DNA of 24,000 nt from Oscillospiraceae bacterium (lineage in GTDB: Bacteria; Bacillota; Clostridia; Oscillospirales; Ruminococcaceae). Both the position numbers and the translations under genes were made by a program. The notes below the pieces were generated by a model, which was not told where the DNA came from, made no database searches, and saw only the letters and a list, made by a program, of their open reading frames with translations. The stretch lies in the NCBI GenBank assembly GCA_034933305.1, contig JAYFNU010000003.1, positions 148,417 through 172,416 on the forward strand. The letters run 5' to 3'. Positions 13,177-20,663 of the stretch are shown here, piece by piece (the stretch's first letter is position 1; each line of letters begins with the position of its first letter).

Positions 13177-13417
13177 CGATTATCGCCGCCGGCGGCGGGA
13201 TAATGCCGGGACGGCGCTCCCGAAGGCCGGAATTTCCGAAGCCGCGGCGCCGCCGCGGGGCGTGAGCGAAAATGAAAGAAATGAAAAAATCAAGTCGGAA
13301 AGGAGTTATAAATCAACAAAATGAGCAACAAGTGTCTGAAAATTCATGCAACATGCCAAAACAAATCACCGCCAACTTGTGAAAAGAGCAGAAAATTTCA
13401 AAACAGCCAAAAATATC

Positions 13418-13446
13418 TTGCAAAATAAATCATTCGTAAATATACT
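13418..13446 (+). promoter_or_regulatory. Candidate promoter of the DeoR/PTS block
   Basis: TTGCAA (13418..13423), a 17-nt spacer, then TATACT (13441..13446), 22 nt before the DeoR-family ATG. It lies in an AT-rich spacer. Confidence 0.55.
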
Positions 13447-13467
13447 GGAGTCAAAAGGAGAGATGAA

Positions 13468-14253
13468 ATGGAAGCTGCAGGAAAATCGCACGAAGTGCCG
13501 GCATTTCGCCAGCAAAAAATACTGGAACTGCTCGAAGAAAAGGAAAACATCCACATTTTCGATCTTGTCGAGCTGTGCGGCGTCTCGCAGGCGACCGCCC
13601 GCCGGGATCTCGACGAACTCGCCCGCAAGGGGCTGATCGTGCGGTCTCACGGCGGCGCCGTAAGACGCAGGATGTCGGTCTTTGAGCAGCCGCATATGCA
13701 AAAGCTCGGCATGCATATAACAGAAAAAGCCCGGATCGCGAAGTGCGCGGCGGCGCTCGTCAACGACGGGGACAGCATATATATCGATTCCGGCACGACC
13801 GCCATGATGGTGGGCCAGAATCTGACGGAGCGGAAGAACCTGACGGTCATAACGCACAATCTCGATTTTGCAAACAGCGTGATGCTCGATCCCTCCTCCA
13901 AGCTGATCGTGACGGGCGGCATGCGCCGGGAGGACTTCAACTCCCTTTCGGGGTCGATCGTGGAGGCATTTGTCAGGACGATCAAGGTCGACAAGGTGTT
14001 CTCCGGGGCCGACGCCGTGGATTCCGAACAGGGCCTGTATCTCTCGAACTTTGAGGAGCTCGGGCTGAAAAGGCTGATCGTCGAATGCGCGAGGAGCGCC
14101 ATCCTCGTGACCGATCACAGCAAATTTCTCGAGCAGGGCATCGTGAAGATCTGCGATCTGTCGGCGTTCGATCTGATCATCACGGACAAAGGGCTGCCGC
14201 AGCAGGACGCGGAAAACGTCCTGAAGCAGGAAGTGCAGCTCAAGCTTGTCTGA
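13468..14253 (+). CDS. DeoR/GlpR-family transcriptional regulator (SgcR/AgaR-like)
   Basis: The N-terminal wHTH is RQQKILELLEEKENIHIFDLVELCGVSQATARRDLDELARKGLIVRSHGGA. It is followed by a DeoR C-terminal sugar-phosphate sensor domain (IYIDSGTT...VITHNL...LIVTGG...DKVFSGADAVD). AAAGGAGAG is the RBS. Confidence 0.9.
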   Translation: MEAAGKSHEVPAFRQQKILELLEEKENIHIFDLVELCGVSQATARRDLDELARKGLIVRSHGGAVRRRMSVFEQPHMQKLGMHITEKARIAKCAAALVNDGDSIYIDSGTTAMMVGQNLTERKNLTVITHNLDFANSVMLDPSSKLIVTGGMRREDFNSLSGSIVEAFVRTIKVDKVFSGADAVDSEQGLYLSNFEELGLKRLIVECARSAILVTDHSKFLEQGIVKICDLSAFDLIITDKGLPQQDAENVLKQEVQLKLV

Positions 14254-14311
14254 GGTTTGAAGCGAATTCTCCATAGCGATGGACGATATCAGCATATATA
14301 GGGAGGACAAG

Positions 14312-14923
14312 ATGATTACAAAAGAAAAAATGTACGAAAGCGCGCTGCACACGTTTGAAAACGAGGCCAACGCCGTCCGGGCGCTCGCCGATACGGTGGA
14401 CAGGAAGCAGCTGTGCGATGCGATCGAGCTGCTTGCCACGACGAAGGGCCACATTATCGCGACGGGCTGCGGTACCTCCGGCGTGGCGGCCAATAAAATA
14501 GCGCAGGTCTTCAACTGCGTGGACCGCGCCGCGCTTTATCTGAATCCCGCCGACGCCCCCCATGGAGACTACGGCGTTATCCGGCCGGGAGACGTCGTCA
14601 TCGTCATCACGAAAAGCGGGAAGACGAGAGAGATGGCGGAGCTGATCCCGATCGCGCATCTGCGCGGCGCAAAGGTCCTGTGCGTCACGGAAAACAGGGA
14701 CAGCGAGGTGTACAAAAACAGCGATTATCAGATCCTCCTCAATACCGGACTGGAAGCCTGCCCCTATCAGTGTCTTTCCACCACCTCCGTGACGGCGGTA
14801 TTCGCGCTTTTCGACGCGATTTCGATCGCGATCATGCTTTACAATGGAATCGATACAGAATATTTCAAGATGGTGCATCCCGGCGGCGGCGTCGGCGAGA
14901 TGCTCAAGAGCAAAGGAAAATAA
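14312..14923 (+). CDS. Single-SIS-domain sugar-phosphate isomerase (KpsF/GutQ-like core, no CBS pair)
   Basis: I chose the start MITKEKMYES at 14312 because of GGGAGG 5 nt upstream. The SIS motifs are GCGTSGVAANKIAQVF, PHGDYG and ITKSGKTREM. The product is 203 aa. Confidence 0.85.
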   Translation: MITKEKMYESALHTFENEANAVRALADTVDRKQLCDAIELLATTKGHIIATGCGTSGVAANKIAQVFNCVDRAALYLNPADAPHGDYGVIRPGDVVIVITKSGKTREMAELIPIAHLRGAKVLCVTENRDSEVYKNSDYQILLNTGLEACPYQCLSTTSVTAVFALFDAISIAIMLYNGIDTEYFKMVHPGGGVGEMLKSKGK

Positions 14924-14924
14924 T

Positions 14925-15659
14925 ATGAAGCTTACAGTGACCGAAAGCTTCGAGCAGAGCAGCAGGCGCACGGCCGACCTGTTCGAGAGCTGCATCCGGA
15001 AAAAGCCGGATGCGCTTCTGGGGCTTGCGACGGGGAGCTCGGTCGTCCCGCTGTATCGGATCTTTTCCGAGGATTGTGCCGCGGGGAAAGCGGATTTTTC
15101 CAAGTGCTGCACGATCAACGTCGACGAATACATCGGACTGCCCAACGACCACCCGCAGAGCTTTGCGTATTTCATGCAGACGCATCTGTTCGGAAAGACG
15201 AATTTCAGCGCGCAGAACATATATCTCGTGGACGGCGCGGCGGATCCCGCAAAGGAAGCGGATCGGTTCAACCGTTACCTTCGCGCAAAGCGGATCGACA
15301 TTCTGCTGCTGGGGATCGGCGGAAACGGGCACATCGGCTTCAACGAGCCGGGCGACAGATTCATCGCCCCGGCGCACACCGTCGAGCTGAGCGAACAGAC
15401 CGTCGCCGCCAACGCGCGGATGTTCAAATCGGCGGACGAGGTCCCGCGCATGGCGTTCACGATCGGTGTGCGCGACGTTGTCCGGGCAAACAAGGTCGTG
15501 CTGATCGCCTCCGGGGCGTCCAAGGCGGACGCCGTCGGAAGGCTGTTCGCGGACGATTGCATCGATCCCATGCTTCCGGCGAGCGTCATAAAGCTCTGCG
15601 ACGACGCCGAGGTGATCATCGATGAAGAGCTCGCCGAGGCCGCGGGCCTGAGGAGTTAA
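14925..15659 (+). CDS. Glucosamine-6-phosphate deaminase/isomerase family protein (NagB/AgaI-like)
   Basis: The start MKLTVTESF is 1 nt after the SIS gene stop (TAAT ATG). The motifs are GLATGSS, NVDEY (Asp72 equivalent) and GIGGNGHIGFNEP (His143/Glu148 equivalents). The product is 244 aa. Confidence 0.85.
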   Translation: MKLTVTESFEQSSRRTADLFESCIRKKPDALLGLATGSSVVPLYRIFSEDCAAGKADFSKCCTINVDEYIGLPNDHPQSFAYFMQTHLFGKTNFSAQNIYLVDGAADPAKEADRFNRYLRAKRIDILLLGIGGNGHIGFNEPGDRFIAPAHTVELSEQTVAANARMFKSADEVPRMAFTIGVRDVVRANKVVLIASGASKADAVGRLFADDCIDPMLPASVIKLCDDAEVIIDEELAEAAGLRS

Positions 15660-19655: not shown

Positions 19656-19667
19656 AGAAAGAATGAA

Positions 19668-19695
19668 GCGGCTCTGTGTCTCGGCACAGAGCCGC
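19668..19695 (+). other. Intercistronic 11-bp stem-loop between the epimerase-like and BtpA-like genes
   Basis: GCGGCTCTGTG-TCTCGG-CACAGAGCCGC is a perfect 11-bp stem. No U-run follows (ACGTTTAC), so it is more likely an RNA stability or processing element, or a weak attenuator, than a full terminator. Confidence 0.5.
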
Positions 19696-19731
19696 ACGTT
19701 TACAGCGTGAAAACGATTTCGGAGGTGCCAT

Positions 19732-20538
19732 ATGAGTTGGCTCAGGGAAGTCATCGGGACGGAGAAGCCCATCATCGCCATGTGCCATCTGCAGGCGATG
19801 CCCGGCGACCCGTATTACGACAGGCAGAAAGGGATGGGCTGGGTCGTTGAAAAAGCGGCGCAGGACGTCAGCGCCCTGATCGAAGGCGGCGTTGACGCGA
19901 TCATGTTCAGCAACGAATACAGCCTGCCCTACCTGACGAAGGTCAGGGCGGAGACAGTGGCCTCCATGGCCCGCGTGATCGGGGAACTGAAGGACCGCGT
20001 CACAGTGCCGTACGGCGTGAACTGCCTCTGGGATCCGGTCGCTTCGCTCGATCTTGCGGTGGCAACGGACGCGAAATTCGTGCGGGAGATCTTTACGGGC
20101 GTTTACGCGAGCGATTTCGGATTGTGGAATACGGACTGCGGCGCGGTCGTGCGCCATCAGCGCGAGATAGGCGCGGAGCGGGTAAAGCTGCTGTTCAATA
20201 TTTTCCCGGAGGCGGCAAAGTATCTTGCGGACCGCCCCGTCGAGTCCGTGGCGAAGACCACGATTTTCAACTGCCGTCCCGATGCGCTGTGCGTGTCGGG
20301 GGCGACGGCCGGCGCGGCGACAGATCCCGAAATCCTCAGAAAAGCAAAGTCGGCGGCCGGCGACACCGTTGTGCTGGTCAATACGGGGTGCCGCATCGAC
20401 AGCATCGAAATGCTCCTGGGGATCGCCGACGGCGCAGTCGTCGGCACGACCTTCAAATACGACGGAAAATTTGAAAATCAGGTCGACGTCAAGCGGGTCA
20501 AAGCCTTCATGGACAAGGTGAAAGCCTTCCGGCACTGA
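19732..20538 (+). CDS. BtpA/SgcQ-family TIM-barrel protein
   Basis: The sequence reads KPIIAMCHLQAMPGDPYY...GGVDAIMFSNEYSLPY...PYGVNCLWDPVASLDLAVATDAKFVREIF...GAVVGTTFKYDG. This follows the BtpA family pattern (hhGMVHL.PLPGSP.Y; ENF.D.P; GVN.L.ND) as I remember it. The product is 268 aa. Confidence 0.8.
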   Translation: MSWLREVIGTEKPIIAMCHLQAMPGDPYYDRQKGMGWVVEKAAQDVSALIEGGVDAIMFSNEYSLPYLTKVRAETVASMARVIGELKDRVTVPYGVNCLWDPVASLDLAVATDAKFVREIFTGVYASDFGLWNTDCGAVVRHQREIGAERVKLLFNIFPEAAKYLADRPVESVAKTTIFNCRPDALCVSGATAGAATDPEILRKAKSAAGDTVVLVNTGCRIDSIEMLLGIADGAVVGTTFKYDGKFENQVDVKRVKAFMDKVKAFRH

Positions 20539-20606
20539 AGCGGCCGGCCGCGCCGGCGGGATCTGCCCGAACGCAGCAGATTCAATGGATATCGCTATTA
20601 CCGACG

Positions 20607-20643
20607 AAAAGCGGCTCTTCCTTTGCGCGGAAGAGCCGCTTTC
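20607..20643. terminator. Bidirectional intrinsic terminator closing the PTS block and the convergent ATPase gene
   Basis: The sequence is AAAA-GCGGCTCTTCC-TTTGCGC-GGAAGAGCCGC-TTTCATTG, an 11-bp perfect stem. Confidence 0.8.
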
Positions 20644-20663
20644 ATTGTATCTGCCCGCCGCGC

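Follow-up and report, generated by a model that had tools for sequence, protein, structure and literature searches.

The block at positions 13200-20650 of a 24,000-nucleotide (nt) stretch of contig JAYFNU010000003.1 (assembly GCA_034933305.1; the whole stretch is called the window, and all positions refer to it) holds a single intact operon of sugar phosphotransferase system (PTS) and sugar-phosphate enzyme genes related to the sgc operon of Escherichia coli, which has been an orphan for decades. This locus is a mosaic variant of an already known, uncharacterized system, in which sgc-type PTS proteins and enzymes are joined to an enzyme pair of the amino-sugar type. On balance, we are inclined to read it as an uptake and breakdown operon for a sugar derivative, controlled by its DeoR-family regulator and assembled from two modules, with a route leading from the PTS through a hydrolase and a deaminase to isomerases, and with an origin in a lower-GC genome.

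The operon consists of eight consecutive open reading frames (ORFs) on the + strand (13468-20538), which were assigned to families with Pfam and NCBIfam. This profile search of every ORF bore out the eight co-directional genes and the families named in a preliminary description of this DNA, made from its sequence alone. The genes occur in the following order:

13468-14253, + strand: DeoR-family regulator (PF08220, HTH_DeoR, and PF00455, DeoRC; E-value 1e-47)
14279-14923, + strand (start at 14279 or 14312): single-domain SIS isomerase (PF01380, 8.5e-20)
14925-15659, + strand: NagB-like deaminase/isomerase paralog of 244 aa (PF01182, 7.9e-21)
15663-17246, + strand: EIIA read in frame into an SgcX-type M42 di-metal hydrolase (PF00359, 6.6e-27, and PF05343, 2.1e-74)
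17255-17551, + strand (likely start 17267): EIIB with an ACGVG phospho-cysteine motif (PF02302, 6e-9)
17564-18994, + strand: SgcC-type EIIC permease of the Gat family (EIIC-GAT, PF03611, 1.9e-67)
19035-19655, + strand: SgcE-type Rpe paralog (Ribul_P_3_epim, 8.4e-43)
19732-20538, + strand: BtpA/SgcQ-family protein (BtpA in Pfam, 6.9e-86; TIGR00259, 307 bits, cut-off 153.4)

The gaps between these genes measure 1-76 nt. Since the Pfam E-values range from 6e-9 for the 98-aa EIIB to 7e-86 for BtpA, chance matches are of no concern, and all eight ORFs are full length relative to their profiles, with intact catalytic or phosphorelay motifs. Judged from sequence likeness, the block is made of two modules. 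The first is of the sgc type and comprises the Gat-family EIIA, EIIB, and EIIC, the SgcX-type M42 protein, the SgcE-type epimerase, and BtpA/SgcQ; the second is aga/nag-like and comprises the AgaR-like DeoR regulator, the KdsD-like single-domain SIS protein, and the NagB-like deaminase/isomerase.

Constant core and exchangeable front ends

The window proteins were compared by BLASTP with the E. coli K-12 sgc cluster and a chosen set of candidate paralogs. EIIC scored 338 bits with SgcC (43.5% identity) against 166 with GatC, the M42 domain 290 bits with SgcX (42.7% identity) against 135 with FrvX and 86 with YpdE, and the Rpe-like protein 147 bits with SgcE (40.6% identity) against 77 with Rpe and 72 with AlsE. 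For EIIB the margin is small, with 77 bits for SgcB (40.4% identity) and 68 for GatB. BtpA is best matched by SgcQ (62.5% identity over 267 aa) and had no other match among the E. coli proteins compared. By contrast, EIIA scored 52 bits with GatA, 47 with FrvA, and 36 with SgcA, and is therefore a family match only, not SgcA-type, and the regulator has AgaR as its best match (129 bits, against 99 with SgcR). Five of the seven proteins (M42, EIIB, EIIC, Rpe-like, and BtpA) thus look specifically sgc-type, whereas the EIIA and the regulator correspond at the family level. The preliminary description was right that all seven sgc families are present; the likeness goes beyond the family for these five, and not for EIIA and the regulator.

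These matches could mean that the locus is a straightforward ortholog of the E. coli sgc operon, acting on the same substrate, with the SIS and NagB-like proteins adding two downstream steps. The five best matches, the high identity of BtpA to SgcQ, and the joint recurrence of the seven families in other genomes are in line with this reading, which we nevertheless consider doubtful in view of the gene content of the related loci.

We scanned one genome per GTDB species for BtpA and found relatives in 344 genomes, the 80 most similar of which were examined with 10-kb flanks; this sample is biased towards query-like sequences. Locus ORFs were called mechanically; the proteins of the window and of E. 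coli, together with Pfam/NCBIfam-annotated representatives, served as references for the comparison. All seven sgc families are found co-directionally in Camelliibacillus (L043), Bacillus litorisediminis (L045), and an Oscillospiraceae metagenome-assembled genome (MAG; L003), and 8 of the 80 loci, including those of Brassicibacter, Clostridiaceae, Erysipelotrichaceae, and Cytobacillus, combine EIIC, M42, Rpe, and BtpA. Since it recurs outside E. coli, the sgc set is no E. coli oddity, as had been proposed; the accompanying idea of one conserved functional unit does not hold to the same extent, because the set is separable and is one of several interchangeable modules.

An FGGY kinase gene lies beside BtpA in 50 of the 80 loci, usually with a CUT2 ATP-binding cassette (ABC) transporter, and a Gat-type PTS (EIIC) is present in nine; only one locus, L076, has both. 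FGGY kinase and Gat-type PTS are therefore near-exclusive alternatives in BtpA-anchored loci. Such a pattern usually means that one kind of phosphorylated sugar can be supplied either by an ABC transporter with a kinase or by a PTS, and it puts the BtpA step after phosphorylation. In L076 (Cytobacillus firmus DS1, ~2500-14000), two divergent operons stand side by side, the first with a Gat-type PTS (EIIA, EIIB, and EIIC), an Rpe-like gene, and a DeoR gene, and the second reading DeoR-FGGY-M42-BtpA-ABC. Other BtpA neighbors are DeoR (54 of 80 loci), M42 (30), SDR (21), HAD phosphatase (18), and Rpe-like proteins (14) and, more rarely, a xylose-isomerase-like TIM barrel with a split transketolase (7-9), a phospho-furanose-lactonase-like protein of the PTE family (6), and gamma-glutamyltranspeptidase (3). 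The gene for the last enzyme lies between the SDR and BtpA genes in FGGY-type loci of Cohnella and Paenibacillus (L063, L067, L077), which makes it a second peptidase/amidase family, besides M42, embedded in BtpA sugar loci. In six loci (L038, L039, L011, L013, L035, and L046), two BtpA paralogs, ~40% and 72-79% identical to the window BtpA, flank the PTE-family protein (275 bits with the phospho-furanose-lactonase model, cut-off 630); these loci also contain an EIIA and often a HAD phosphatase.

SIS and NagB-like genes occur together in 10 of the 80 loci. Nine of these, from Lachnospiraceae (including Clostridium symbiosum ATCC 14940, L024) and a Spirochaetaceae MAG, read DeoR-BtpA-SIS-NagB-like-FGGY-ABC; we know of no characterized locus of this organization. 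The FGGY kinase of this ABC version scores 572 bits with the NCBIfam ribulokinase model, above its cut-off of 428. Seven further homologous loci were examined in a search anchored on SIS. DeoR-SIS-NagB-like is present in every examined locus whose SIS protein is at least 65% identical to that of the window. It is combined with a PTS front end in the window, L003, L165, L166, and L169, and with an ABC transporter, FGGY kinase, and BtpA in L020-L022, L024-L027, L029, L055, L170, and L171 (L027 being a short contig that ends after the kinase). The ABC versions, counted as 12 loci, lack PTS, M42, and Rpe-like genes. The three closest PTS relatives, with EIIC proteins 75-77% identical to that of the window, all lack BtpA; they read DeoR-SIS-NagB-EIIA-EIIB-EIIC-Rpe-HPr-M42 (L165), DeoR-NagB-SIS-EIIA-M42-EIIB-EIIC-Rpe (L166), and DeoR-SIS-NagB-EIIB-EIIC-M42, without Rpe and EIIA (L169). 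The full combination is found only in the window and L003.

The window locus is therefore a mosaic. What stays constant in this clade is the DeoR-SIS-NagB-like core, which is served by either of two alternative front ends; one of these is the sgc-type PTS plus M42, to which Rpe and BtpA may or may not be added. The preliminary description had seen an sgc locus expanded by two enzymes, and this hierarchy has to be reversed, because the supposed additions are the constant part, the PTS relatives lack BtpA, and the ABC versions lack PTS, M42, and Rpe. The same observations speak against simple orthology with E. coli sgc: the closest PTS relatives have no BtpA and one of them neither Rpe nor EIIA, the core is also paired with an ABC transporter and a kinase, the regulator and EIIA are nearer to AgaR and GatA, and the sgc-type loci of Bacilli have no SIS or NagB-like gene.

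Compared with the window, the ABC-type loci (e.g. L024, or L020 of C. transplantifaecale) have DeoR proteins 45-50%, SIS proteins 65-71%, NagB-like proteins 48-58%, and BtpA proteins 69-76% identical, and differ in relying on a CUT2 ABC transporter and an AraB-like kinase instead of a PTS for uptake and in having no M42 or Rpe-like gene. They would presumably process the same phosphorylated intermediate as the window locus. Two metagenomic loci (L167 and L172) share with the window the Gat-type EIIB and EIIC, a SIS protein (51-55% identical, in the same subfamily as the structure 3fxa discussed below), BtpA, and an Rpe-like gene. They differ in having a Zn-dependent dehydrogenase of the polyol-phosphate type, a class II aldolase, an aldehyde dehydrogenase, and a PRD-type regulator, and no NagB-like or M42 gene; they are a polyol-type variant.

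Residues and folds of the encoded proteins

The SIS protein most resembles the SIS domain of KdsD/GutQ/KpsF, with the CBS domains absent (Pfam/NCBIfam), and scores 113.7 bits with TIGR00393, under the cut-off of 203.7. Its closest relative of solved structure is an uncharacterized Listeria protein (PDB 3fxa; 5.8e-46, 160 bits), and it also resembles solved single-domain arabinose-5-phosphate isomerases. Equivalents of KdsD His88, Glu152, and His193 are retained; at the position of Lys59, this protein and 3fxa both have Thr (GCGTSG). The protein thus has none of the three marks of an arabinose-5-phosphate isomerase, namely tandem CBS domains, Lys59, and a score above the TIGR00393 cut-off, and its residues suggest that its specificity probably differs from that of this enzyme.

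The NagB-like protein most likely starts at 14925 and not at 14844, since an independent gene call and its homologs agree. It scores 196 bits with TIGR00502 (cut-off 236.9) and 209 with NF001684 (cut-off 326), and is also below the cut-off of the agaI model. However, D67, H136, E141, an Arg, and K200 align with D72, H143, E148, R172, and K208 of E. coli NagB, so that the full deaminase catalytic set is kept, as is the FNEP motif. Because its catalytic residues are kept and its score falls below the equivalog cut-off, we regard the protein as a diverged, probably active deaminase/isomerase paralog.

To our knowledge, the thousands of members of the BtpA/SgcQ family include none with a solved structure or described biochemistry. 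Among the papers covered, literature searches on the sgc genes and on the BtpA/SgcQ family yielded the uncharacterized status of sgc and the iModulon data discussed below, but no functional assignment for BtpA/SgcQ, and a PDB sequence search with the window BtpA gave no match at E <= 0.01. Its AlphaFold model is a (beta/alpha)8 barrel (pLDDT 88.6, pTM 0.89), which Foldseek matched to the phosphate-binding barrels of PcrB/GGGPS, KDPG aldolase, ThiE, HisF, and Rpe with TM scores of 0.50-0.60. BtpA thus represents a distinct family, which very likely binds a phosphorylated ligand; fold matches at this level are generic, so no specific reaction can be transferred from them.

In the fused protein, the EIIA part has an intact phospho-histidine motif (G-V-A-I-P-H), and the M42 domain keeps every di-metal ligand motif common to SgcX. 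The junction is a run of seven A (~16131-16137; context CCGAAAAAAATG, 16125-16140) just 5' of the M42 ATG, with GGAGG ~11 nt upstream of this ATG. The fusion is found in no other of the 120 best M42 homologs, and in L003 EIIA and M42 are separate genes, the EIIA stop overlapping the M42 start in a different frame. We considered a widespread 'Rosetta stone' fusion and rejected it, as L003 and the remaining homologs all have two separate genes. For the window, three explanations are conceivable: the two proteins are truly fused, translation reads through and also re-initiates internally, or, given that the junction sits at the A run, the homopolymer was missequenced.

The Rpe-like protein keeps its metal and acid-base motifs (LHIDIED, SFHIM, EPDG, and WADG, with the HxD, H, and D common to SgcE), and its best NCBIfam model is PRK08005 (154 bits, below the cut-off of 376). 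EIIB gives a very weak score of 20 bits with the ascorbate models, and EIIC reaches 378 bits with the galactitol model TIGR00827, under the cut-off of 542.

The Gat-family membership of EIIA, EIIB, and EIIC might suggest that the locus encodes the known galactitol or L-ascorbate PTS pathway, or it might be a decayed cryptic remnant, given that the E. coli sgc cluster sits in a cryptic prophage-like island (PMC13343008). We consider either case most improbable. Pfam and NCBIfam detected no homolog of GatD (alcohol dehydrogenase) or of GatY/Z (F_bP_aldolase), and no member of the UlaD, UlaE, UlaF, or UlaG families, among the eight proteins, so that gene content contradicts both pathways as the explanation of all the genes, a possibility that the preliminary description had left to be checked; the low EIIC score points the same way. 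Decay is at odds with eight full-length ORFs, intact motifs, and the presence of regulatory signals.

Candidate route and substrate

In the pathway that we favor, the operon would be repressed by its own DeoR protein from a conserved leader element (13409-13434, described below). The PTS, whose phosphorelay motifs are intact, would import and phosphorylate the substrate, from which the M42 hydrolase might strip an N-linked acyl or aminoacyl group. To judge from its catalytic residues, the NagB-like protein would then turn a 2-amino-aldose phosphate into a ketose phosphate and ammonia, and SIS, the Rpe-like 3-epimerase, and BtpA could adjust carbonyl position and stereochemistry to give fructose-6-phosphate or xylulose-5-phosphate. 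That the enzymes act on a phosphorylated sugar is indicated by the relatives in which the PTS is swapped for a CUT2 ABC transporter and an AraB-like FGGY kinase.

The substrate is, in our view, somewhat more likely than not to be nitrogen-bearing, glycated amines included, because of the deaminase residues of the NagB-like protein, the AgaR-like regulator, the recurrent M42 and gamma-glutamyltranspeptidase genes, and the nitrogen response of E. coli sgc. The SgcABCEQX transcription module (iModulon) of E. coli is strongly induced on nitrogen-containing, slow-growth carbon sources, and sgc deletion mutants show no growth defect across 190 carbon sources (PMC13343008). As the preliminary description had said, the sgc substrate has never been determined, and this was still so in July 2026 (PMC13343008; also PMC5797941).

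Several points weigh against the proposed route. The NagB-like protein scores under the nagB equivalog cut-off, KdsD Lys59 is missing from SIS, and E. coli sgc has neither a NagB-like nor a SIS gene. BtpA is missing in the three closest PTS relatives, and therefore its step is not obligatory; likewise, the ABC versions lack M42, and deacylation is therefore not universal. M42 proteins are known as aminopeptidases, not as sugar deacylases. Repression by DeoR and the operator are predicted from family behavior and one conserved motif. Finally, a pentose or pentitol route free of nitrogen would accommodate the AraB-like kinase, the SIS protein resembling arabinose-5-phosphate isomerase, and the enzyme resembling ribulose-5-phosphate epimerase just as well.

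Such a route, in which the PTS would provide a pentose or pentulose phosphate, from a pentose, pentulose, or pentitol, for the pentose-phosphate pathway, is the main competing reading, possible though not favored here. SIS would act as arabinose-5-phosphate isomerase, the Rpe-like protein as ribulose-5-phosphate 3-epimerase, BtpA as a further epimerase or isomerase, and the NagB-like protein as an isomerase only. This would agree with the likeness of SIS to KdsD/GutQ/KpsF and the solved arabinose-5-phosphate isomerases, with the ribulokinase score of the ABC-version kinase, and with the BtpA neighbors found elsewhere, which include the split transketolase, a TIM barrel resembling L-ribulose-5-phosphate 3-epimerase, the phospho-furanose-lactonase-like PTE protein, and a Zn-dependent alcohol dehydrogenase with class II aldolase. 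Pentitol-related chemistry has also been suggested for E. coli sgc (PMC13343008). On the other hand, it would leave the M42 hydrolase without a role and the full deaminase catalytic set and FNEP motif of the NagB-like protein unaccounted for; there is no polyol-phosphate dehydrogenase within the block, and Thr replaces the Lys59 of KdsD in SIS.

Within the nitrogen-bearing substrates, the locus might serve specifically for the breakdown of glycated amines (Amadori or Heyns compounds) or of glyco-amino acids and glycopeptides, with SIS and the NagB-like protein as deglycases on the phosphorylated sugar and M42 processing the peptide part. The chemistry of SIS-type enzymes (FrlB, GfrE/F) and of NagB-type enzymes is the same as that of deglycation. 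Peptidase-type enzymes recur in BtpA loci (M42 in 30 and gamma-glutamyltranspeptidase in 3 of 80), and an M42 gene is present in each of E. coli's three orphan PTS operons (frv, fry, and sgc). This specific version is unlikely, since SIS is of the KdsD type and not of the double-SIS FrlB/GlmS type. Moreover, the known Amadori systems use PfkB kinases or a mannose-type PTS. The induction of E. coli sgc on nitrogen-containing substrates (PMC13343008) fits this version.

More generally, one might tentatively extend the nitrogen-bearing reading from this locus to sgc, frv, and fry, all of which would break down sugars to which an acyl, aminoacyl, or peptide group is attached through nitrogen, for example glycated amines and unusual N-acyl amino sugars. 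M42 would remove this group, the KdsD-like SIS protein and the NagB paralog would be deaminases or deglycases, and BtpA/SgcQ, with its phosphate-binding TIM barrel, would be a hitherto unrecognized sugar-phosphate epimerase, isomerase, or aldolase. We rate this extension as improbable; if true, it would give a function to the BtpA/SgcQ family and a reason for the peptidase genes in sugar PTS operons.

The modularity of the sgc-type enzymes, seen in the window and its relatives, makes the question of the sgc substrate testable. Cultured Lachnospiraceae feed the same core by an ABC transporter, the soluble binding protein of which offers a direct route to the ligand. This ligand would name the substrate of the window PTS, and would also give a first biochemical foothold on BtpA/SgcQ and on the link between PTS operons and M42.

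Boundaries, origin, and known systems

Four further features mark the borders and the control regions of the block:

13142-13173, + strand: terminator-like hairpin at the left boundary (dG -15.3 kcal/mol, z -2.4), followed by TTTTGTTT, which ends the upstream Eda/PfkB unit
13260-13467, + strand: AT-rich leader of 208 nt (33.7% GC) with a promoter-like site, a ribosome-binding site, and a repeat
19668-19695, + strand: hairpin inside the operon, in the gap between the Rpe-like and BtpA genes (dG -24.1 kcal/mol, z -5.4), without a + strand T-run
20608-20642, + strand: strong terminator hairpin at the right boundary (dG -26.7 kcal/mol, z -4.9), between the BtpA gene and the convergent gene at 20664-21731 (- strand)

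The two outer hairpins agree with the terminators previously placed at 13147-13176 and 20607-20643. The AT-rich spacer described after the first of them is real, yet it measures 208 nt instead of ~270; between it and the terminator lie ~80 nt of GC-rich sequence. The spacer includes a sigma-70-like promoter site 5' of the DeoR gene (TTGCAA at 13418-13423 and TATACT at 13441-13446, 17 nt apart), the ribosome-binding site AAAGGAGAG (13454-13462), and a 12-nt direct repeat, CAAAAYAAATCA, with copies at 13357-13368 and 13421-13432. A stretch of ~26 nt, AAAAATATCTTGCAAAAYAAATCATT (13409-13434), is common to the window and L003 (~3650-3700) despite 17 GC points between the two genomes; it overlaps the -35 hexamer and holds one copy of the repeat. 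The repeat is a candidate DeoR operator.

The hairpin inside the operon may be a processing or stabilizing element, or a partial attenuator. The gene just 3' of it, BtpA, is the one absent from the closest related loci, and E. coli likewise has a long gap beside sgcQ, which holds the antisense small RNA ryjB. Rfam, with a relaxed E-value on the block and gathering scores on the whole window, and ARAGORN detected no riboswitch, small RNA, or tRNA.

Directly upstream on the same strand lie a KDPG aldolase (11022-11984; Eda-like, 320 aa, with the aldolase domain in residues 1-206) and a PfkB kinase (11996-13018), which together match NF041633 (KHG/KDPG aldolase/sugar kinase fusion protein) in two pieces, the kinase part with 594 bits. 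The claim that the block lacks a kinase and an aldolase of its own is therefore true inside the block, although both enzymes are encoded next to it. We considered these as part of the pathway and rejected them, as the pair is adjacent in 43 longer metagenomic loci (kinase 72-76% identical), none of which has sgc-type genes, and as a terminator lies in between. Since the pair is kept on its own, it is an independent unit, and the left boundary of the block stands. A search for an empty insertion site from the PfkB flank found relatives 69-76% identical that had no other flank genes in common. Two well-supported ORFs, 20664-21731 (- strand, 355 aa) and 2760-3590 (- strand, 276 aa), have high GC at third codon positions (GC3) and no Pfam match at E <= 1e-5.

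With a GC content of 58.1%, positions 13200-20650 fall below the two flanks (64.4% and 64.1%); in 60-nt lines the mean GC fraction is 0.59 (range 0.37-0.73) inside the block and 0.64 outside. Gene by gene the difference is significant (Mann-Whitney p = 4e-4), and mean GC3 is 0.76 in the block against 0.85 in the flanks (p = 0.013). The figures of 35-50% and 73% estimated by eye were wrong, while the lower-GC segment itself is genuine, its deficit of ~6 points being modest. The seven nearest homologous loci all lie on contigs of 42-53% GC and have no flank genes in common with the window. The nearest BtpA homologs in the genome scan are from Oscillospiraceae and Oscillibacter MAGs, and the host, an uncultured gut Oscillospiraceae, is Clostridia-like as predicted. 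The window BtpA has an identical counterpart among NCBI MAG proteins, and a Logan assembly contig from SRR27243471 matches bases 11004-20616 without any difference. The GC deficit, the low-GC relatives, and the unshared flanks make it probable that a Clostridia lineage of lower GC content donated the block, which has since been partially ameliorated. The horizontal acquisition suggested earlier is thus plausible, with modest support, as 24 kb of the genome are in view.

Among known systems, E. coli sgcXBCQAER, on the KpLE2 island, has the same seven families. The window differs in gene order, in the fusion of EIIA to M42, in the extra SIS and NagB-like genes, in an EIIA nearer to GatA and a regulator nearer to AgaR, and in having relatives without BtpA; the ryjB region of E. 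coli has no counterpart in it. With the aga system (AgaR, AgaS, AgaI) it shares the combination of an AgaR-like DeoR regulator with SIS- and NagB-family enzymes. However, its SIS protein has a single KdsD-like domain and is not a double-SIS AgaS, there is no tagatose-bisphosphate aldolase (KbaY/Z), and the features in common are the AgaR-like regulator (178 bits with its model, cut-off 260) and the AgaI-like fold alone, so that it is not an aga locus. The window further differs from both nag and aga in its Gat-type PTS, where these have a Glc/Man-type, and in its M42 hydrolase in place of the NagA/AgaA amidohydrolase. Nevertheless, the nag (NagE-NagA-NagB) and aga pathways follow the same logic as the one proposed here, with phosphorylation by a PTS, a metal hydrolase, and a NagB-family deaminase.

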